From contig DASYXS010000020.1 in the NCBI GenBank assembly GCA_035934535.1, forward strand, positions 357 to 64,356: a stretch of DNA of 64,000 nucleotides. The letters are read 5' to 3'. The first letter of the stretch is position 1, and each line of letters begins with the position of its first letter. The notes under the pieces are model-generated. The model was not told where the DNA came from. It saw only the letters and a program-made list of their open reading frames with translations, and did not search any database. Below, piece after piece: positions 3,403-63,266 of the stretch. Origin of the DNA: a bacterium. GTDB lineage: Bacteria; Sysuimicrobiota; Sysuimicrobiia; Sysuimicrobiales; Segetimicrobiaceae. Both the position numbers and the translations under genes were made by a program.

Positions 3403-4460
3403 GCCCGCGCCTCCGATGCCGCGGTGTCCGCGAGGGAGACCACGCGGCCCGTGCGCGCGGACTCCACGGCGGCGAGCGCCAGCCGGAGCGCGGCCCGCGC
3501 CTCGTCCGGCGACATCGGCAGCGGGCGCCCCGCGCGGACCGCGTCGATGAACGCCGCGTGCTCGCGCGTGTACGCCGTCTGATTATGCAGCAGAATGTGG
3601 CCGCTCTCGGGATAGTCCGCGCCGCCGTCCCGGAACCGGGTTAGGCTGATCAGCTCGTGATCCCGGGCCCGGATGGCGCCGCGAAGGCCGTAGGCCTCGA
3701 ACTGGTGGAACGCCGGATAGCCCGCGGGCAGGCAGTTGCTCACCTCGCTCGAGCCGACCGACCCGTTGGCGAATTTGACCGCCCACGTGACGAAATCCGG
3801 CACGCCGCGGTTTCCCTCGATTGTGATCTTGTGTTCGGCAAAAACGCTGACCGGCTCCGCGCCGGCGAACCAGCGCAGCAAGTCGGCCTCGTGGATGCCG
3901 TTCGTCAGCGCGGCCCCGACCGATACGGCCGGGTCACCGGTCCAGTGGGACCCGGTGTAGTATCCCGGCTCGCCCGCGCGCGCCCCCGCACGCCGCTCGT
4001 TCTCCCGGACGAGCCGGACGGCGCCGATCTGGCCGCGATCGATCGCGCGCCGGATCTCCATGTACCGGCGGGTGAACCGGCGGCTGTGGCCGATCATCAG
4101 GTGGACGCCGGCCGCGCGGCACGCGTCGATCATGGCGTCGGCGTCCTCGAGCGACGGCGCCATCGGTTTCTCGCACAGGACGTGCTTCCCGGCCGCCGCG
4201 GCGGCGACGGTCCACTCCCGGTGCGCAGCCTCGGGGGTCGTAATCACGACCACCTCGACGTCGTCCCGATCGACGACCTGCCGGCCGTCGGCGTAGGCGT
4301 CCGCACCCCACGGCGCCGCGGCGGCCTGCGCCATTTCCAGACGTAGGTCGGCCGCGGCAACGAGTACGACGCGGTCGCGCAGCGCCCGCATCGCGGGCAA
4401 ATGGGCGCCCCGCGCGATGCTGCCGCACCCGATCAGACCGATTTTCACAGGCGTCGCCAC
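3399..4460 (-). CDS. Gfo/Idh/MocA family oxidoreductase
   Basis: 353 aa. KIGLIGCGSIARGAHLPA Rossmann start and the VLCEKPMA (EKP) motif typical of this family. Confidence 0.85.
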   Translation of the reverse strand: MATPVKIGLIGCGSIARGAHLPAMRALRDRVVLVAAADLRLEMAQAAAAPWGADAYADGRQVVDRDDVEVVVITTPEAAHREWTVAAAAAGKHVLCEKPMAPSLEDADAMIDACRAAGVHLMIGHSRRFTRRYMEIRRAIDRGQIGAVRLVRENERRAGARAGEPGYYTGSHWTGDPAVSVGAALTNGIHEADLLRWFAGAEPVSVFAEHKITIEGNRGVPDFVTWAVKFANGSVGSSEVSNCLPAGYPAFHQFEAYGLRGAIRARDHELISLTRFRDGGADYPESGHILLHNQTAYTREHAAFIDAVRAGRPLPMSPDEARAALRLALAAVESARTGRVVSLADTAASEARA

Positions 4461-7648: not shown

Positions 7649-8498
7649 ACAGCAGGTCCACGATTAGATTGACGAGCACGAAGGTCACCGCAAACAGCAG
7701 CACCACACCCTGGATGATGGGATAGTCCCGCCGGGCGATCGCGTCGACCAGGAGGCGGCCGATCCCCGGCCATGCGAACGTCGTCTCGGTCAGAATCGCG
7801 CCCCCGATCAGCGCGCCGAACTGCAGCCCGAGGACCGTCACCACGGGGATGAGCGCGTTGCGCAGCGCGTGACGGTAGACCACAATCGGGTCGGCCAGCC
7901 CCTTCGCCCGGGCCGTCCGGACGTAGTCCTGGCGCATGCTCTCCAACATGCTGCTCCGCGTCATCCGCTCGATGATCGCGAGGCTGAATGCCGCCAGCGT
8001 AATCGACGGCAGGATCAGGCTCTGCGGCGAGGTATCGCCGCCGGCCGGCAGCAGATGCAGCGCCACCGCGAACACGAGCATCAGCATCAGCCCGAGCCAA
8101 TAGACGGGGATGCTGACGCCGGCGAGCGCGAGTACCGTCACCGCGTAGTCGGTGGCGGTGTACTGCCGGGTGCTGACCAGGATGCCCGAGGCGATACCCA
8201 GGGTCCCGGCCAGCACCGTCGCGGTCGCCGCGAGCAGCGTCGTCGGACCGAGGCGGCCGGCGATCTCGGAGACCACCGGCGCCTGGGTCACGGCGGACCG
8301 GCCGAGGTTGCCGCGGACGGCGTTCGCGACGAAGAGCGCGTACTGCACCGGAACCGGCTTGTCCAGGCCCAGCTGAACGCGGATCCGGTCGACCTCGGTC
8401 TGGTCGGCCTCGAGACCGGCCAGGACCCGCGCGGGATCTCCGGGCAGCACGCGCACCATGAAGAAAATGATGAGCGTGACCCCGAACAGGGTAGGCAC
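7614..8498 (-). CDS. ABC transporter permease (DppB/OppB type), start unresolved
   Basis: EAA loop VRTARAKGLADPIVVYRHALRNAL and C-terminal YGYIDPRIRFG. The conserved N-terminal helix continues upstream of the track's GTG (FLTFAIRRLAAAVPTLFGV). No ATG/GTG/TTG occurs before the in-frame TGA at 8571-8573. Confidence 0.85.
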   Translation of the reverse strand: MPTLFGVTLIIFFMVRVLPGDPARVLAGLEADQTEVDRIRVQLGLDKPVPVQYALFVANAVRGNLGRSAVTQAPVVSEIAGRLGPTTLLAATATVLAGTLGIASGILVSTRQYTATDYAVTVLALAGVSIPVYWLGLMLMLVFAVALHLLPAGGDTSPQSLILPSITLAAFSLAIIERMTRSSMLESMRQDYVRTARAKGLADPIVVYRHALRNALIPVVTVLGLQFGALIGGAILTETTFAWPGIGRLLVDAIARRDYPIIQGVVLLFAVTFVLVNLIVDLLYGYIDPRIRFG

Positions 8499-55768: not shown

Positions 55769-55813
55769 CTGGTGCCGGGCGGGGGATTTTGCGATTATCC
55801 CCACGGCCGCGAG
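55769..55813 (+). repeat. Intergenic ~45-nt element family, copy A
   Basis: CTGGTGCCGGGCGGGGGATTTTGCGATTATCCCCACGGCCGCGAG. 39 of 45 identical to copy B and 34 of 45 to copy C by hand alignment. Internal stem GGGGAT/ATCCCC. Confidence 0.7.
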
Positions 55814-55926
55814 CCCGCGCTGCGGCATCTCGACGCTGGCAGCCGTGGCCCGCGGATGCGATGAGACCGAGGCCCCGTCCGGGCCGACGACCTCGGGAGA
55901 GAACGGAGCAGACGGCGGACACACGC

Positions 55927-56598
55927 TCAGCGGGCGCGTGTCGAGGCCGCCTCCTGCGCCGCGTAGACCGAAATGGGCAAGGGGTCAAGGACCGGAATCC
56001 CGATCTGCGTCCGAAGGTCTTGGGCGATACCAAGCGTGCCCTGTGTCATCGAACCGAGGTAGATTCCGTCCGCGCGATGCTCCCGCACGGCCGCGGCCGC
56101 TTCCTCGCGCATGAACCGGCGTCCCGCTTCGAGATCGGCCAAGATCTTGCGCACCGTCGTCTTCATCATGTGGACGACGACGGTGTCCGGCCGCGCCGGC
56201 ACGTTCTTGATCATCGCCTGAGCCGCGGGCACGGCGGGCTCCACGGTGAGGATCACGAGACGCGATGCCACGAGGCGGGCGACGAACAACGAGGCTTCCC
56301 CGGGGCCGATCACGGGGACCTTGGCGGCGGCGCGCAGGTCGGCGAGCGCCGGGTCCACGGCGCCCGCGGCGATGATCGCCGCGCAGCGGTCCGGCCCGAT
56401 CTCGGCGACCGCCGCGAGGGCGGCCCGGCCGGCCTGCTCAAAGTCCTCTCGCCCCTCGAGGATCTTGGGGCCGTCGGGCGGGTTCAGGAGCTCGATCGTG
56501 AACCCGGGGCGCAGGTACCCGCGCAGGATCTCGAGCCGGCGGTTGTTCTCGGCGCTGCCGTATCCGGTCACGGACTCGAGGTACACGATGTGCGGCAT
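55927..56598 (-). CDS. Asp/Glu/hydantoin racemase-family paralogue lacking both catalytic cysteines
   Basis: Track ORF trimmed to ATG 56598, preceded by GGAGGGG. Same fold pattern as the gene at 1660-2364, but the Cys blocks read IIAAGAVDPA and IYLGSMTQG. Confidence 0.75.
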   Translation of the reverse strand: MPHIVYLESVTGYGSAENNRRLEILRGYLRPGFTIELLNPPDGPKILEGREDFEQAGRAALAAVAEIGPDRCAAIIAAGAVDPALADLRAAAKVPVIGPGEASLFVARLVASRLVILTVEPAVPAAQAMIKNVPARPDTVVVHMMKTTVRKILADLEAGRRFMREEAAAAVREHRADGIYLGSMTQGTLGIAQDLRTQIGIPVLDPLPISVYAAQEAASTRAR

Positions 56599-56713
56599 CG
56601 GGCATCCCCTCCACACGTGTACTTCTGGCGGAGCGGAGCGCCTCCTTGCCGAATATCTCGCAGGCCTGCCGCACGCTCGCGTCCTTGACGCCGCAGCACG
56701 AGGTGACACGCCG

Positions 56714-58390
56714 ATGGCCGGTCCCGTGCGCACGACACCCGCCGTAGCCGGCATCGCCGCACGACGCCGCACCCTGACGCGGCGCGGGCTGCTTACCGGC
56801 GCCGCGGGCCTCGGGCTCGCGGCCGCCGGACCACCGGCGCCGTGGACCCAGATCGGACGCGCATCGGCCGCGCCCACCCCTCGACGCGGCGGCACGTTCC
56901 GCGTCCCCGTCAACGCCAACATCACGCCGTGGCCGCCCATCGGGTTGATCCAGAACCTGATGGTGAACAACGCCATGTTCAATAAGTTGGTGCGCCTCCG
57001 GCCGGCGGACTGGGCGCCGGAGGCCGATCTCGCCGAGCGCTGGGAGGTGTCCAAAGACGGATTGACGTGGACGTTCCACCTCAAGAGCGGCGTCAGGTGG
57101 CACGACGGCCGTCCGTTCACCGCGGACGACGTCAAGTACACGATCGACGCGTACGCCGATCCCAAGATCAACAGCCAGTTGCGCGGAAATTTCGAACCCG
57201 TCGCCGGCGTCGAGGTCGTGGACCCGATGACGGTCCGGGTCGCCACCAAGACGCCGTACTCATCGTTCCTGGAGCTCCTATGCTACATCGCGTTCATCAT
57301 GCCCAAGCACCTGCTCGAAGGGCAGGAGTTCAACGCCACCAAGTTCCCGCAGGCGTTCCTCCAGCATCCGGTCGGCACCGGACCGTTCAAGTTCGGCGAG
57401 CACATCACGGGCGATCACTTCACGGTGACCGCGTACGACAACTATCACGAGGGACGGCCGTACCTCGACGCGATCATCTACAAGGTCGTGCGGGATCTGA
57501 ATTCCACGGTGCTGCAGGTCAAGACCGGTGAGCTCGACATCGCGTTCCCTACGGTCGCGCAGATTCCCGCGCTCGCGGGCACTCCGACCATCGCGATCAC
57601 CGAGCAGCCGGTGATGGACTTCCGGTATTTCGGCGCCAACTACCGGACGGACAAGAGCCCGACGCTGGGGAAGTGGTGGGGCGCACGGGCGGTCCGGCAG
57701 GCGTTCGCGCACGCGATCAACACGAAGGGAATCATTCAGCAGGTCGCCCGGGGACGCGCGGAACTGGCCAACGGTCCGATCCCCAGCGCGCTCAAGAACT
57801 GGTACGTGAAGGACGCGCCGACTTTCGACTACGATCCGGAGCGGGCCAAGAAGATGCTCTACGAGGCCGGCTTCCGGGCAGGCGGGGACGGCATCCTGGC
57901 CAAGGACGGCCGGAAATTCGCGTTCACCTTCAACACCGATCAGGGGCAGCCCGAGCGGATCGACGCCTCGCTGATCGTGCAGCAGAACCTCCGGGACATC
58001 GGGATCGACGTCCGGTTCCAGCCGCTCGAGTTCACCGAGTTCGTGCGCCGCGAGCACGTCACCGAAGAGTACGAGGCGTTCTGCTTCTACTACATCGTGC
58101 CGCAGACCCCGGACCTGCACTCATACTTCCAGACGAACGGCTCGCTCAACATCTGGGGTTACTCCAACGCGGAGATCGACCGGCTGTTCCTGCAGGGACT
58201 CGCCACGTTCGACGCCGCGAAGCGTCGCGAGATCTACACGCGCCTATACCGGCGGCTCGCGGAGGAACAGGCCGCCAACTTCCTCTACCACCCGCACGAG
58301 ATTCAGGCGATCAACAAGCGAGTGCTGGGATGGCCGGCGACCGACTACCGGACGGCGCTGGCGTTCCTCAATCGGGTGTGGCTCGCGTGA
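56714..58390 (+). CDS. ABC transporter substrate-binding protein, family 5, Tat-like signal; no cognate permease nearby
   Basis: Trimmed to ATG 56714. RRRTLTRRGLLTGAAGLGLAAA signal and family-5 blocks (GTGPFKFGEHITGDH, AFAHAINTKGI). Confidence 0.9.
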   Translation: MAGPVRTTPAVAGIAARRRTLTRRGLLTGAAGLGLAAAGPPAPWTQIGRASAAPTPRRGGTFRVPVNANITPWPPIGLIQNLMVNNAMFNKLVRLRPADWAPEADLAERWEVSKDGLTWTFHLKSGVRWHDGRPFTADDVKYTIDAYADPKINSQLRGNFEPVAGVEVVDPMTVRVATKTPYSSFLELLCYIAFIMPKHLLEGQEFNATKFPQAFLQHPVGTGPFKFGEHITGDHFTVTAYDNYHEGRPYLDAIIYKVVRDLNSTVLQVKTGELDIAFPTVAQIPALAGTPTIAITEQPVMDFRYFGANYRTDKSPTLGKWWGARAVRQAFAHAINTKGIIQQVARGRAELANGPIPSALKNWYVKDAPTFDYDPERAKKMLYEAGFRAGGDGILAKDGRKFAFTFNTDQGQPERIDASLIVQQNLRDIGIDVRFQPLEFTEFVRREHVTEEYEAFCFYYIVPQTPDLHSYFQTNGSLNIWGYSNAEIDRLFLQGLATFDAAKRREIYTRLYRRLAEEQAANFLYHPHEIQAINKRVLGWPATDYRTALAFLNRVWLA

Positions 58391-58436
58391 TAATTGCGAC
58401 CGCCCAATTCAATACTGGAGGCTATGCTGCCTTAAG

Positions 58437-58481
58437 CTGGTGCCGGGAGGGGGATTTTGCGATTGCCCCCATGTCCGCGGG
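58437..58481 (+). repeat. Intergenic ~45-nt element family, copy B
   Basis: CTGGTGCCGGGAGGGGGATTTTGCGATTGCCCCCATGTCCGCGGG, between convergent stops at 58390 (+) and 58523 (-). Internal stem GGGGG/CCCCC. Confidence 0.7.
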
Positions 58482-58522
58482 CCGTCCGGATCGTCACGTA
58501 GCGGGCGCATTCCCGGGCGCAC

Positions 58523-59701
58523 CTATAGCACCTTCCTGAACGCCTCCAACCTCGGCATCAGGTCCCTCAGTAGTATGCCGCTCCTAAACGGTAAGACCTC
58601 ACCGGGCAGAGGGCCGACCTTGAGCGCCATCGACTTCCTGACCGCCACGATAATACCGGCCTCGCGCACCCGCCGCAGCTTCTGAAACTTGGCCGCGAGA
58701 TATTCGGGAGTCCAGTACCCCACGATCTCGAGGGCCACCTCCGTGCCGTCCTCGTGGATGAACGCGAAATCCGGGACTACGAGATGCTCTCCGGCTTCCA
58801 GGAGGATCGCCTCCCGACGAAGCCGCCACCCGTCGCGCCGCTCGCCAAACTTGGCCGCAAACCGCACCTCCAGTCCGGAGTCGAACAGCGCCGGGGGAGG
58901 CACGCTGGAACGGAGCCCGGCGGCCGACGAAAGGGAGAACGACGCGCGACGCCAGCCCTTGCGCACCATGATCTCCGCATCGAGGTGCCAGTCTCGCGCC
59001 TGGACGAGTGCCGCGAGAAACTTCGCGAAGTCGGCTCCGTACGCGTGAGTCTTCCGGAGGATCGAGACCGGCCCGTCCAGGGTGATCCGGTACGGCCCGC
59101 CGCCTTCGCGTGCGATGCGATGCATCAAGCGCGAGAGACGCACGTATCGCACAATATGTCCCAGATCGGACTGGGCCGTCACCTCGACCCGCGCCGCGTC
59201 GTACAGTAGGGCCTGGGCTTGCGCCAAGTCGTAGTCGGCTCTCAGGTCCCCGGCGGTGTAGGTGTCGGGAAACGCGGTCAACCGGTGGAACTCTGGATAG
59301 TCTGGATACAGGAACGCCACGAGCTCGTCGTCCCGTTCAGGGGTGGAATCGAGTGCCGCGGTCAGGATCCGCCGGCCGGTCTCCCGGTCAAGCACCGGAT
59401 GCTGACCGGCGGCGGCCTGGAACGCGCGGAGACGACGCTCGGCTCCGCTCCCCCTTCGCGGCCAATCGTACGTGGCCGCCTCGTCGAGGAGTTTGATCAC
59501 CGCCTCCACGCGGTCCGGTCTGAGACCGCGGAGGGCCGCGCGGGCGGCATTGCGTACAATCCCCAGTCGGTCCCCGATGTGAGCGCCGTAGACGGCAATA
59601 CCCCGCGCCAGATGGGGCACGCACTCGTCCTCCAGGCGATCAGAGGAGATCGAGTTGGTGCGCCTGTCCCAGTGATAGACGCGCTGCGCCTTTGTAAGCA
59701 T
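58523..59701 (-). CDS. DUF790 family protein (Bax1-like PD-(D/E)xK nuclease)
   Basis: Track ORF 58523..59875 trimmed to ATG 59701 (MLTKAQRVYHWD). The C-terminal VVPDFAFIHEDGTEVALEIVGYWTPEYLAAKFQKL matches the DUF790/Bax1 nuclease core as I recall it. The start lies 62 nt inside the helicase 3' end. Confidence 0.8.
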   Translation of the reverse strand: MLTKAQRVYHWDRRTNSISSDRLEDECVPHLARGIAVYGAHIGDRLGIVRNAARAALRGLRPDRVEAVIKLLDEAATYDWPRRGSGAERRLRAFQAAAGQHPVLDRETGRRILTAALDSTPERDDELVAFLYPDYPEFHRLTAFPDTYTAGDLRADYDLAQAQALLYDAARVEVTAQSDLGHIVRYVRLSRLMHRIAREGGGPYRITLDGPVSILRKTHAYGADFAKFLAALVQARDWHLDAEIMVRKGWRRASFSLSSAAGLRSSVPPPALFDSGLEVRFAAKFGERRDGWRLRREAILLEAGEHLVVPDFAFIHEDGTEVALEIVGYWTPEYLAAKFQKLRRVREAGIIVAVRKSMALKVGPLPGEVLPFRSGILLRDLMPRLEAFRKVL

Positions 59702-61127
59702 CCGTCCGGGCGCGCCCCCGCGCCCGCCGCACGTCTGGCGTTTCCTCGACAACGACCTCGTAGAGACGGGCCGGGTGGTCTCCCCACCGGCGCAGGAGCC
59801 GCCCCAGCCGTTGGACGGCCTCCCGGGCCCCGCGCTCCCCGCCGAGGACAATGCCGACCTTGACGGCCGGCGCATCCCAGCCTTCGTTGAGCACCTCGCA
59901 CGCGGCCAGTGCGCGGAGGCGGCCCTGCGCGAACTGGTCCAGCACGGCGTTCCGCTCCTTCTTGTCGGAGTGCGACGTCAGCGCCGGGATGAGGAACCGG
60001 GCCGACACGTCGAGGGCCATCCGGTTGGAGGCGGTGAAGATGACGCATTGGTCGGACGAGTGCAGGCGCAGGATATCTTCGACCACCCGGAGCTTCTCCG
60101 CCGACCGATGTAGGAGGGCAAGCCGCCGGTGGTAGCTCAGAAGAATTTCTTTGGCCTCGGGATCGGTGCGGGACAGTTTGACGAGATCCTCGCGCCAGTC
60201 GAACCGGGCGTCCTCCCGCCGGCGTTTCGCGACGTACGCGCGAATTTGCCGAGAGCGCCGGTCGAATTCCGCCTGTTCATCCTCCGCCAGATAGACGGGC
60301 ACTCGGATGATGGAGTAATGCGCGAGCGTCCGTCCCCGGGCTTCCGGTACCTTTTCCTCAAACGCCGTCGGGCCGATGAGCTCGCCGAGCATCCGGTCTC
60401 GCCCGTCCGCGCGCTCCGGGGTCGCGGTCAGACCGAGACGCATCGGGGCCAGAGAATCGAGCGCGCTCTCATGCAGCGACAGACCCGGGAGGTGGTGAGC
60501 TTCGTCGTAGACGATCAGACGATAGCGATTGCCGATCTCTTTCATGTGGATCCATGCGCTGTCGTACGTCGTCACCGTGATCGGCCAAACTTCCCGCCGC
60601 CCGTCTCCCAGCACCCCGGCGTCCACGCCGAGGCCCTGCCGGATCCGCCGCTGCCACTGGTACATGAGGTCCCGCAGCGGGGCGACGATCAGCGCCGATG
60701 CGCGGTGGCGCGCGATGATCGTGAGGGCGATCTCGGTCTTGCCGGTTCCCGTCGGCTTGACGACGACACCACGGCATCCCGCACGTTCCCAAGCCGCCAC
60801 CGCCGCCTCCTGGTCCGGTCTCAGGGACGGCAGGTTGGGCCGAAGGGTCGGGCAGTCGAAGAAGCGCTCCGCCTCGTCGCTGAGGTGGAGGTGATACGCG
60901 ACCGCGTCCTCTCGGAAACGCAGATGGTTGATCGCTTCCGTGCGCCAAGCCTGTACTCGCGAATCCCAGCGGAGATAGGCCGGCACCTCTAACGTCTGCG
61001 GCGCATCGAGTCGCAGCGAACCGCGATCGAACCGCAGTGAAAGAAGCCGGTTCGGTAGACCGGGCAAGTCCGGAGAATCTCCGGCGCCGCCCCCCCGAGC
61101 GCGGCTTCGCCGCCTCAGGTGCGCCAT
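59640..61127 (-). CDS. XPB/ERCC3-like superfamily 2 DNA helicase
   Basis: 495 aa. N-terminal LSLRFDRGSLRLDAP (XPB damage-recognition-domain-like), motif I VVKPTGTGKT, motif II LIVYDEAHH, motif III LGLTATPERADG, motif VI-like QRLGRLLR. Confidence 0.85.
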   Translation of the reverse strand: MAHLRRRSRARGGGAGDSPDLPGLPNRLLSLRFDRGSLRLDAPQTLEVPAYLRWDSRVQAWRTEAINHLRFREDAVAYHLHLSDEAERFFDCPTLRPNLPSLRPDQEAAVAAWERAGCRGVVVKPTGTGKTEIALTIIARHRASALIVAPLRDLMYQWQRRIRQGLGVDAGVLGDGRREVWPITVTTYDSAWIHMKEIGNRYRLIVYDEAHHLPGLSLHESALDSLAPMRLGLTATPERADGRDRMLGELIGPTAFEEKVPEARGRTLAHYSIIRVPVYLAEDEQAEFDRRSRQIRAYVAKRRREDARFDWREDLVKLSRTDPEAKEILLSYHRRLALLHRSAEKLRVVEDILRLHSSDQCVIFTASNRMALDVSARFLIPALTSHSDKKERNAVLDQFAQGRLRALAACEVLNEGWDAPAVKVGIVLGGERGAREAVQRLGRLLRRWGDHPARLYEVVVEETPDVRRARGRARTDAYKGAARLSLGQAHQLDLL

Positions 61128-61549
61128 CGGGCCAGCCCTTCGCCTTTCGCCGCAGCCGCCAGCCGCGCATCAAAGGACAGGATCGTCAGCTCCGGTACCT
61201 CGTTCTGAAGGCTCTTGGCCACGGCCAGGTGCCAAAGATCCGCGCCCCGCAGTGGCCACTTGGACGATAGGTCCCGCACGACCTTCCAGTCAGGCACCGC
61301 GTTCAGACGACGCCAGGGGCCACCTTCAAGGGCCTCGCGTGCCGCTGCAACGAGGACTTTGGCCAGGGCGCGCTCACGTTCTATTCGCGCAATCACGGCA
61401 TGTACCTCAGCCCATGCCAATGTGGATAGAAAATGCACCGCTGAGCGGCGCGCGCTCCGGCTGGCCTCCTCACTGTGCCCATCGTGAAAAAGGGCGGAAA
61501 GGATTGCCGAACTGTCCCAATAAACCGCACTCGTAACCTCCGTGCTCAC
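61115..61549 (-). CDS. vapC: PIN-domain toxin (VapC type)
   Basis: GTG 61549 shares GTGA with the antitoxin stop. 144 aa with PIN acidic residues in AVYWDSSAILSAL, STLAWAEV and ILSFDARLAAAA. Confidence 0.8.
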   Translation of the reverse strand: MSTEVTSAVYWDSSAILSALFHDGHSEEASRSARRSAVHFLSTLAWAEVHAVIARIERERALAKVLVAAAREALEGGPWRRLNAVPDWKVVRDLSSKWPLRGADLWHLAVAKSLQNEVPELTILSFDARLAAAAKGEGLARWRT

Positions 61550-61830
61550 GAGCCACGGTCCTCCTGCAACCATTTCTGCGCCAGACCTTCCTTGAGCGGG
61601 AGAGGCGGGGGAAGATTCCGCACCACATGACGCAAAGGTTCCACCAGCCCGGAGTCCTCCAGCCGGCGGACGCGCTCCGCTAATGGCAGAAGACGCCCGG
61701 AAATCGGCGAGAGTCTCGCAACAGGGCTGCCCCGCTCCGTGATGACCCACTCCTGACCGCGTTGCACATCGCGAAGCAATTTGCTCAGTCGCGCTTTGGC
61801 CTCGCGCACCCCAGTTCTTCTCGCCTTCAC
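61546..61830 (-). CDS. Phd/YefM-family antitoxin
   Basis: 94 aa, GTG start. VREAKARLSKLLRDVQRGQEWVITERGSPVARL is the typical Phd/YefM N-terminal fold. Confidence 0.8.
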   Translation of the reverse strand: MKARRTGVREAKARLSKLLRDVQRGQEWVITERGSPVARLSPISGRLLPLAERVRRLEDSGLVEPLRHVVRNLPPPLPLKEGLAQKWLQEDRGS

Positions 61831-61870
61831 GACAGCACCTTCAATATGTAGACTCTAAGACTACATAGAT

Positions 61871-61899
61871 ATTGTAGTTTAGGTGACCATGTAAGTCAA
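61871..61899 (-). promoter_or_regulatory. Sigma70-type promoter of the antitoxin-PIN-helicase-nuclease operon
   Basis: The reverse strand reads TTGACT, 17 nt, TACAAT, 40 nt upstream of the antitoxin GTG. The imperfect inverted repeat ATGTAG-N9-CTACAT (61846-61866) and a third TGTAG overlap or follow the -10. Confidence 0.55.
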
Positions 61900-61983
61900 G
61901 CAACGAAACTGAATCCTGGTCCCGGCGCGATCCTGAAAGCGTTCCTGACGAGCATGAATCAGAGACTCAGCGGGAAATAAACG

Positions 61984-62027
61984 TGGTGCCGGGAGGCCGT
62001 CTTTGTCATTATCCCAACGGCCAAGAG
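61984..62027 (+). repeat. Intergenic ~45-nt element family, copy C
   Basis: GTGGTGCCGGGAGGCCGTCTTTGTCATTATCCCAACGGCCAAGAG. Internal stem GGCCGT/ACGGCC. Confidence 0.65.
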
Positions 62028-62286
62028 TCGTGCGAGTGATCGCATGACCGTACTACCGGCCTCACGCGCATGAACGCTGCGCCAATCGTCCGCCAAGCAA
62101 AGCCCTCTTCCGATGGACCCGGGCCGGCCGCCTACTACCCTTCGGGACGGCGGCCGAACCCGTCGGATACCTTTGTCATGATGCCAGCAGCACCGAAGAG
62201 TACCGGCGCGCCGAATAGAATGCCGATTCAACGCCGCGCGCCGTGCTCACAACGCCGAACGCAAACGGGCTGATCAGGCGTTACGG

Positions 62287-62541
62287 GTGCTTGCGGCTAT
62301 CGAACGCGCGCTGAAGTCCGGAGGACATCGTGGAGAGGAGCTCAGCGGCGCGTTCGCCGGTCTGTTCAAGCTCAGGGTTGGCGATTACCGAGCCATATAC
62401 GCCCGGACAGAAGTCGGGTACCTCATCCTGCGCAATATGCGCTCTCGGCAGTCGAGAAGGCTATCGAATCGGTCGACGACTCGGATGGCTTCATGGCCCC
62501 AGTGGTTCGCGCTTTGTCGGGTGTTCGTAGAAACAACTTGA
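62287..62541 (+). pseudogene. RelE/ParE-family toxin remnant
   Basis: Contains the family core GLFKLRVGDYRAIYARTEVGYLIL, but the expected C-terminal xGHRxxxY is out of frame (ALGSREGYR appears in the +1 frame). No intact N-terminus, start context or antitoxin gene lies upstream. Confidence 0.5.
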
Positions 62542-62572: not shown

Positions 62573-62857
62573 ATGGCTAAGGTTACATCGAAGCTTCAGG
62601 TCACGGTCCCTAAAGCAGTCGCAAATCACTATGGCATTCGCCCAGGCGATGAGATCGAGTGGCTCGCCGCCGGGGAGACGATTCGGGTCGTCCCCCCTGG
62701 CAGGAAGCTCAGAACAATGAGCCCTGCCGAGCGCCTTCGCCGTTTCGATCTGGCGACAGCCAGACAGCGGAAGAGGAACAAAGGCCCTCACGCGGCGTCG
62801 GTACAGACCCGTGGATGGAGCCGAGAGGACCTCTATCGCCGTGGCCGCGCTCGTTGA
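62573..62857 (+). CDS. vapB: AbrB/MazE/SpoVT-family antitoxin (VapB type)
   Basis: 94 aa. The MAKVTSKLQVTVPKAVANHYGIRPGDEIEW swapped-hairpin motif is followed by a basic tail. Confidence 0.85.
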   Translation: MAKVTSKLQVTVPKAVANHYGIRPGDEIEWLAAGETIRVVPPGRKLRTMSPAERLRRFDLATARQRKRNKGPHAASVQTRGWSREDLYRRGRAR

Positions 62858-63266
62858 TACGAACATCCTCGTGTATCGCTTCGATCCACGATTCCCAGAC
62901 CGCCAAGAGATGGCGACTGAAATCCTGAGGCGGGGGATCGCCGAGGATTCGATCCGTGTTCCTCATCAGGCAATCATGGAGTTTGTCGCGGCGGTGACGA
63001 GACCGCTTGTGGGCGCAGTGCCTCTCCTCTCGGTGCAAGACGCACTTCGGGAAGCCGAGGAGATGCTGAGGCAATTTACCGTGCTGTATCCGGACGAGAT
63101 GCTCTTGAGGACGGCGCTCCGAGGCGCGGTAGCATACCAACTGTCCTGGTTCGACGCACATTTGTGGGCATATGCCGAGCATTTCGGCCTTTCGGAACTC
63201 CTGTCCGAAGACTTCCAGCATGACCGTCTCTACGGCAGCGTTCGGGCAGTGAACCCGTTCGTGTGA
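62841..63266 (+). CDS. vapC: PIN-domain toxin (VapC type)
   Basis: GTG 62841 overlaps the antitoxin 3' end by 17 nt. ALVDTNILVYRFD, QAIMEFVAAVTR and LSWFDAHLWAYAE carry the PIN acidic residues. Confidence 0.85.
   Translation: MAALVDTNILVYRFDPRFPDRQEMATEILRRGIAEDSIRVPHQAIMEFVAAVTRPLVGAVPLLSVQDALREAEEMLRQFTVLYPDEMLLRTALRGAVAYQLSWFDAHLWAYAEHFGLSELLSEDFQHDRLYGSVRAVNPFV

Follow-up and report, generated by a model that had tools for sequence, protein, structure and literature searches.

The subject of this analysis is a four-gene locus on the minus strand of a 64,000-nt stretch (hereafter the window) of contig DASYXS010000020.1 (GenBank assembly GCA_035934535.1), from a bacterium of the Segetimicrobiaceae (Sysuimicrobiota). 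A predicted Phd–PIN toxin–antitoxin (TA) pair stands there immediately before the genes for an XPB-like helicase and a DUF790/Bax1-family nuclease. The locus is probably composite: two autonomous modules would have come together within a single small bacterial lineage, with the TA pair as an accessory front end that the helicase–nuclease does not need. The first module would be a self-contained Phd–VapC cassette with its own promoter and palindromic operator, reaching from the –35 box to the stop codon of the PIN gene, and the second a bacterial copy of the archaeal-type XPB–Bax1 helicase–nuclease pair.

The four genes are arranged head to tail in the order Phd, PIN, XPB helicase and DUF790. 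The gene for the Phd/YefM-family antitoxin (61546-61830; 94 aa, GTG start) ends in a GTGA (61546-61549) that also holds the start codon of the PIN-domain (VapC-type) toxin gene (61115-61549; 144 aa, GTG start), giving a 4-nt overlap. The 3' end of the PIN gene overlaps the ATG of the helicase gene (59640-61127; 495 aa) by 13 nt (61115-61127), and the 3' end of the helicase gene overlaps the ATG of the DUF790 gene (58523-59701; 392 aa) by 62 nt (59640-59701). The coordinates of these four gap-free reading frames, listed in an initial annotation of the window, were all reproduced, and profile searches with Pfam and NCBIfam supported all four family assignments that it had proposed. An overlap of ~59-62 nt between the helicase and DUF790 genes, read in both frames, is kept in ~40 related loci, and this conservation places it beyond chance. 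The operon is likely a single transcription unit.

A sigma-70-like promoter (TTGACT-17-TACAAT; 61871-61899, minus strand) lies ahead of the antitoxin gene, and is the sole such site in a 4-kb scan of positions 58300-62300, in which 0.6 would be expected by chance. A putative operator, ATGTAG-N9-CTACAT (61846-61866), comes directly after the –10 box on the same strand, and the Shine-Dalgarno sequence GAAGGTG (61836-61842) stands between this operator and the GTG start of Phd. Both the promoter and the inverted repeat had been reported at this site in the initial annotation and were confirmed. In an alignment of six Phd–PIN cassettes from different contexts, the –35 box, the –10 box and the Shine-Dalgarno sequence were conserved whether or not XPB lay downstream, and the operator core TGTAG...CTACA was invariant. 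Conservation throughout the related cassettes places both promoter and operator beyond chance. Two terminator-like sites inside the genes were at chance level. Type II TA operators are sites of autoregulation, and by analogy with them the Phd–PIN pair would regulate its own expression through the putative operator.

The antitoxin scored 34.1 bits against TIGR01552 (cut-off 20.8) and 29.6 bits against PF02604 (PhdYeFM), just under the Pfam cut-off of 29.8, and the toxin scored 30.7 bits against the Pfam PIN profile (cut-off 23.6). Together the two genes are predicted to form a type II TA pair. Like known VapC/Phd pairs, they have the antitoxin gene first, overlapping the toxin gene by the 4-nt GTGA in the window, a palindromic operator between the –10 box and the Shine-Dalgarno sequence, and a PIN domain with four acidic residues (D12, E48, D104 and D127, read from the translation, with positions assigned by eye and not by structural alignment). 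The cassette family of the window is also widespread and mobile, with 646 homologues in many contexts. It differs from such pairs in that the toxin stop codon is joined to a downstream helicase start codon in the lineage of the window, and in that the toxin of the window itself reads through four extra codons.

The association of the two halves was surveyed from both sides. On the DUF790 side, a scan of one genome per species yielded 78 loci; on the PIN side, 646 PIN homologues were collected, and 80 metagenome loci at 55-89% identity were examined (related loci and contigs are labelled with L- and P-numbers). XPB was found directly upstream of DUF790 at the genome loci wherever upstream sequence exists, and in a Rokubacteria-like clade the two genes overlap by ~59 nt, as in the window. 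No homologue of the Phd or PIN protein of the window occurred at any of the 78 genome XPB–DUF790 loci. The four-gene layout was confined to the closest relatives, a contig designated P0002 (DUF790 91% identical) and L080 (88%); in L081 (79% identity) the gene abutting XPB is glmM, and the TA pair is absent. Orthologous XPB–DUF790 pairs therefore largely lack these TA genes, and a conserved core context was not seen.

Seen from the PIN side, Phd lies directly upstream of PIN in 77 of the 80 metagenome loci, and the other 3 begin too near PIN to show it. XPB follows the cassette in a single one of them, L109. PINs with 89-91% identity to that of the window belong to stand-alone pairs with unrelated genes after them (P0134, present in 24 contigs, P0125 and P0127), as does the 81% identical PIN of P0161. 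In L094 (6001-8102), Phd–PIN is followed by a convergent SBP_bac_5 solute-binding gene, which is the layout of the window (56246-61549) without XPB–DUF790. In L084-L089 (for example, L084 6584-7239), a stand-alone Phd–PIN pair with an 89% identical PIN is followed at once by a further TA pair, made up of a FitA-like RHH antitoxin and a PIN toxin. These genomes thus contain stacked TA cassettes.

Reciprocal decay was observed among relatives of the window. In L090-L093, represented by 8 contigs, Phd–PIN is intact, and XPB and DUF790 are reduced to fragments of 192 aa and 219 aa, respectively; in L090 (6423-7720), a single deletion of ~1.3 kb joins XPB residue ~181 to DUF790 residue ~149. The presence of this deletion in 8 contigs argues against an assembly artefact. 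The opposite case is found in L083, where neither the promoter nor the N-terminal half of Phd is left and a 32-aa in-frame deletion in PIN removes the conserved E48, and XPB (495 aa) and DUF790 (392 aa) are intact despite the broken TA pair. Since the TA promoter is gone there, XPB–Bax1 of L083 would have to be transcribed from some other promoter. The TA and XPB–Bax1 halves are thus separable, and each persists without the other.

The boundaries of the cassette are sharp and autonomous. Among the six aligned cassettes, homology starts at the –35 hexamer; because it does so, and because the promoter boxes are conserved with or without XPB, the promoter can be assigned to the TA cassette. At the other end, the stop codon of PIN (GCCTGA) is exactly where homology among the TA-only loci ceases. 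This stop and the XPB start overlap as TGATG in L080, L083 and L090. In the window alone, CGA replaces the PIN stop TGA at 61129-61127, by which PIN gains four codons (RWRT) and the 13-nt overlap with XPB; the related PINs are 140 aa long, compared to 144 aa in the window. Set against these relatives, the 13-nt overlap results from a window-specific stop-codon mutation, with TGATG as the ancestral junction. The single transcription unit proposed in the initial annotation is likely; the PIN/XPB overlap that it described is not an ancestral feature.

The N-terminal 30 residues of XPB have homologous counterparts in TA-less relatives such as L040 and L034, so that the XPB start codon is older than the fusion. 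A neighbour-joining tree of cassette DNA groups the window with L080 and L090, and the sister of this clade is a TA-only group. Copies linked to XPB form no single group in this tree, as L109 falls far off among TA-only cassettes; its junction has a spacer of ~24 nt, unlike TGATG, and its XPB comes from another subclade (N-terminal region 60% identical). At third codon positions, the G+C content comes to 0.67-0.68 for the two TA genes, to 0.80 for both XPB and DUF790, and to 0.87 ± 0.06 for the remaining window genes of at least 200 aa.

The helicase matched the Pfam families XPB_DRD, ResIII (7.6e-22), Helicase_C (1.6e-12) and ERCC3_RAD25_C, the N-terminal DRD (PF18458) being recognised at residues 31-69 with 31.8 bits (cut-off 26), and its superfamily 2 core has Walker A, DEAH and motifs III-VI, with KPTGTGKT, VYDEAHH and LTATPER read from the translation. 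Comparison with solved archaeal XPB structures by phmmer gave full-length matches with E-values of 1e-82 to 1e-77 (9e-82 for Sulfolobus tokodaii XPBII, StXPBII, and 1e-77 for Archaeoglobus fulgidus XPB), the alignment with StXPBII being continuous over residues 30-472. In the region of the RED motif, which follows helicase motif III, the window has TPERADG where StXPBII has TPERDDG, with R and D retained and Ala between them. The DUF790 protein matched PF05626 with 256 bits (cut-off 28.8; E = 5e-76) over residues 12-382, corresponding to profile positions 10-384 of 387, and matched solved Bax1 structures with a phmmer E-value of 5e-26. Its residues E278 (FDSGLE), D311 (VPDF) and E325 (LEIVGYW) are invariant in 12 relatives and align with the matching motifs of the solved Bax1 structures and with the catalytic triad described for AfBax1, E275, D305 and E318 (PMC7293015). 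The Pfam profiles and the solved structures thus bear out the XPB and DUF790/Bax1 assignments of the initial annotation. The scores lie far below the NCBIfam equivalog cut-offs, at 141 bits against 610 for the helicase (NF045503) and 115 and 111 bits against the Bax1 cut-off of 500, and both proteins are therefore distant homologues and not curated orthologues.

The closest described system is the archaeal XPB–Bax1 complex of A. fulgidus and S. tokodaii (PDB 6P4F, 6P4O, 6P4W and 6P66), a 1:1 helicase–nuclease assembly that cuts fork and bubble DNA, substrates of the repair type, in vitro (PMC7293015, PMC7672443). Both window proteins are homologous to its subunits over their full length; the archaeal-type DRD and the catalytic E/D/E of Bax1 are retained, and the genes are likewise adjacent and co-oriented with the helicase first. 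The window differs in its bacterial host, in the scores below the equivalog level, in the 62-nt gene overlap, in the lack of a fixed genomic context for the pair, and in the TA cassette in front, which is probably its source of transcription. A bacterial XPB/ERCC3 superfamily 2 helicase is also known from Mycobacterium tuberculosis (Rv0861c), but this enzyme has a eukaryote-like N-terminal domain and no known Bax1 partner (PMC3353954), whereas the window has the archaeal DRD together with Bax1. With a superfamily 2 helicase gene beside that of a nuclease of the PD-(D/E)XK type, the class to which DUF790/Bax1 belongs, the two-gene layout recalls the anti-phage systems Hachiman HamAB, PbeA and the TIGR04095 phosphorothioation-dependent restriction helicases. 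The helicase core of the window matches PbeA models at 9e-49 and TIGR04095 at 1.6e-37, but these matches are limited to the C-terminal helicase core (residues 195-462 against positions 373-633 of 672 in the PbeA profile), no phosphorothioation or modification genes accompany the pair, and DUF790 matches no PADLOC model.

Archaeal-type XPB–Bax1 pairs with the DRD occur throughout Methylomirabilota, and genomes that bear the labels Sysuimicrobiota, Planctomycetota, Gemmatimonadota and others contain them too. The genomes labelled as phyla other than Methylomirabilota, among them Candidatus Fervidifonticultor (Sysuimicrobiota), hold relatives with 57-84% XPB identity. Clustering of the proteins encoded around 63 loci, at a threshold of ≥40% identity, grouped XPB itself across all 63 and DUF790 across 58, and no neighbour family was common to more than 5 of the 63, although the XPBs are 70-85% identical. 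A Pfam scan of the neighbours returned ~180 families among 150 proteins, mostly metabolic and housekeeping, and some relatives lie in core-gene settings (cdaA-ybbR-glmM in L081 and gap-pgk-tpi-secG in L080). Plasmids of Deinococcus carry helicase–DUF790 pairs, and those of haloarchaea carry DUF790 genes. Because of the lack of common neighbours and the carriage on plasmids, the bacterial XPB–DUF790 pairs look like accessory modules. The view of the initial annotation that the setting is not a housekeeping one is in keeping with these results and with the enrichment of PIN genes described below.

Two of these loci have features of their own. On the 59-kb Deinococcus wulumuqiensis plasmid NZ_CP049360 (L177, 31655-50587), the helicase–DUF790 pair is flanked on one side by a NERD-domain DEAD-box helicase and a 3'-5' exonuclease, and on the other by the replication initiator gene of the plasmid; genes for type I restriction-modification and one for a PIN-like DUF5615 protein lie 4-9 kb downstream, and these surroundings resemble a defence-type neighbourhood. 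In L025, the complete DUF790 gene (709-1866) is followed 1.9 kb downstream by a second, partial copy (3742-4134) that covers residues 256-386 at 57% identity.

TA genes of several kinds were found beside XPB–DUF790 pairs elsewhere. An MNT–HEPN module (nucleotidyltransferase antitoxin and HEPN toxin) is co-oriented with XPB and touches it in L013, a different Phd–PIN pair lies 69 nt upstream of XPB in L060, a PIN gene lies 8 nt upstream in L068, and in L067 a pair that includes a PIN toxin lies just downstream. In L008, L009 and L041, a divergent MazE–PIN pair stands beside XPB–DUF790 within a 97% identical 4.4-kb block (L008 573-5040, L009 4821-9291 and L041 4979-9293) that also holds a glyoxalase-like gene and has unrelated flanks in the three contigs, two of which come from one genome bin. 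The block is either mobile or located in a strain-variable region; no terminal repeats were found at its boundaries.

The frequency of PIN genes was obtained by an unbiased Pfam scan of small open reading frames (ORFs; 100-200 aa) in the near and far flanks of the pairs, the far flanks serving as the background. PIN was present in 12 of 147 small ORFs within 2.2 kb of XPB–DUF790 pairs (277 kb of sequence). Farther out (~425 kb) it was not among the 25 families shown, corresponding to at most 1 of 150 small ORFs (Fisher's exact p = 0.001, or 0.005 with three near-identical loci collapsed). A gene caller based on third-position G+C missed the low-G+C TA genes and was used for candidates only, the family counts being taken from Pfam. 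A local PIN profile built from position-blind seeds was too narrow (1 match), and one seeded from XPB-adjacent genes was possibly circular; the unbiased scan gave the same 12 near genes as the latter. About 85% of XPB–DUF790 pairs have no adjacent PIN gene.

In the neighbourhoods of the pairs, the TA pair of the window was absent, PIN genes were enriched, and known defence genes were not enriched, since PADLOC matches were sparse and alike within 1.5 kb of the pair and more than 4.5 kb from it. The proposed defence-island setting was therefore not borne out, PIN-type TA genes alone being enriched. PADLOC-DB 2.0 gave no matches for the DUF790, PIN and Phd proteins of the window and contains no model of the four-gene system. 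A phage collection gave no DUF790 match, and 2.9 million viral contigs gave one.

Within the window, only two PIN genes were detected, both within ~1.7 kb of the XPB start. The second belongs to a MazE/AbrB–PIN pair (62573-62857 and 62811-63266, plus strand; MazE_antitoxin 2.5e-10, PIN 2.8e-10), a divergently oriented neighbour outside the operon. Between this pair and the operon, an 84-aa ORF (62287-62541, plus strand) carries a RelE/ParE-like KLRVGDYRAIY motif, and is probably a decayed toxin gene; the initial annotation called it a RelE remnant, for which no Pfam match was found at E < 0.01. A 47-nt intergenic repeat with the core GGTGCCGGGAGGGGGATTTTGCGATT...CCCCA (58437-58483, strand not assigned) lies just after the DUF790 stop codon. 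Further copies at 55769-55815 (87% identical) and 61983-62029 (74%) bring the number to three in the last 9 kb of the window. The same repeat follows DUF790 in L080 (~8236-8391), where the homology between the window and L080 ends. Perhaps it is an intergenic element of the repeated, REP-like kind; a role as terminator or structured RNA was rejected, since its folding is no better than that of shuffled sequence (z = +1.8). The islet bounded by repeats in the initial annotation is thus real as regards the repeat, but no sign was found of the repeat mobilising anything, and there is no tRNA gene nearby to mark an island insertion site.

The initial annotation took Phd, PIN, XPB and Bax1 together as one undescribed defence or abortive-infection system. 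In such a system, the TA pair would be an infection sensor or effector that needs the helicase–nuclease or is itself needed by it. This would account for the lack of intergenic space, the single promoter, the overlapping stop and start codons in relatives, and the joint retention of the four genes between at least three different sets of flanks (in the window, in L080 and in the P0002 contig). It is nevertheless very unlikely, given that the TA pair is found at 0 of 78 XPB–DUF790 loci and XPB at 1 of 80 TA loci, that the cassette has autonomous boundaries, that each half decays while the other is intact, and that neither the PADLOC models nor the distribution of known defence genes points to it. 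Most improbable too is an ordinary repair operon, of the nucleotide-excision-repair type, whose place next to TA genes is an accident in a genome rich in them and has no meaning. The homology to archaeal proteins that open and cut bubble and fork DNA, and the core-gene settings of L081 and L080, would fit a housekeeping role, but the pair has no common neighbours, is carried on plasmids, has decayed in one lineage and shows a significant excess of PIN genes nearby, and deletion of XPB in Thermococcus results in slight UV sensitivity only.

A further possibility, tentative but deserving more weight than these, is that bacterial XPB–Bax1 pairs are mobile accessory modules, selfish or directed against foreign DNA such as phages and plasmids, to which VapC-type cassettes repeatedly attach as interchangeable escorts that provide a promoter, stabilisation or a second layer of protection. 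The window would then be a single case of a loose class and no accident. The dispersal of the pair among genomes labelled as various phyla without common neighbours, its presence on plasmids, the surroundings of the Deinococcus pair, the 4.4-kb block with different flanks, the excess of PIN genes and the four different TA families that abut the pair are all consistent with this, as are a remark from 2005 on a possible 'selfish character' of the DUF790 family and the fact that the in vivo role of archaeal XPB–Bax1 is undefined in the literature. On the other side stand the even distribution of PADLOC matches, the mostly metabolic and housekeeping neighbours, the majority of pairs without an adjacent PIN gene, the near absence from viral sequences, and the repair-type substrates of the archaeal homologues. 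TA genes tend to gather in variable genome regions, and their enrichment may merely mark such regions. Several of the same observations tell against a composite whose TA pair is simply an accessory. The four-gene block is retained in its different flanks; L109 appears to be a second, independent junction of the cassette family with a different XPB subclade; other TA families abut XPB in other phyla (MNT–HEPN in L013, Phd–PIN in L060 and PIN in L068); and PIN genes are significantly concentrated within 2.2 kb of the pairs. Together these suggest that more than accident underlies the association, which could be of functional benefit. A promoter other than of the sigma-70 type may also exist inside the operon.

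We still favour a composite of two autonomous modules, for which the following course of events can be proposed. In the ancestor of a small clade, a Phd–VapC cassette would have become joined, stop to start, to a mobile XPB–Bax1 pair. Because the cassette abuts the XPB start (ancestrally as TGATG), transcription of XPB–Bax1 most likely starts at the TA promoter, and its translation is most likely coupled to that of the toxin. Autorepression by Phd–VapC would then keep XPB–Bax1 low and release it under stress, when the antitoxin is degraded, so that a helicase–nuclease that may be harmful would come under a tightly autorepressed promoter. The TA pair could at the same time act as an addiction module that stabilises the mobile gene block. 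The gene overlap of ~60 nt would couple the translation of XPB and Bax1 and probably supply them 1:1. By homology, XPB would open DNA or translocate on it, and Bax1 would cut at the junction of single- and double-stranded DNA. This activity may serve either repair or defence against foreign DNA.

Before this analysis, the association of DUF790 with helicases was known from bioinformatics only, through the 2005 description of the family and a 2012 survey in which DUF790 co-occurs with helicase domains across prokaryotes. In 2012 it was also stated, in the paper on M. tuberculosis XPB, that no XPB–nuclease complex was yet known in bacteria (PMC3353954). Our literature searches found no later paper describing one, and no description of a defence role for bacterial XPB–Bax1 or of a TA–XPB–Bax1 system. 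The parts of the operon belong to known families and are joined in a manner specific to the lineage. What is new is the apparently accessory, mobile behaviour of bacterial XPB–Bax1 and a previously unreported, measurable concentration of PIN genes beside XPB–DUF790 pairs, which is suggestive, if modest. The reciprocal decay constitutes a clean natural experiment on the separability of the two halves, and a reading of the locus as a novel defence system of four genes does not hold and should be dropped. If bacterial XPB–Bax1 pairs were indeed mobile modules of the kind tentatively considered above, the long-unresolved role of XPB–Bax1 in the cell, in archaea as well, would become testable as an immunity function. 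Given how little defined that role is, the hint of accessory or mobile behaviour offers a testable lead.

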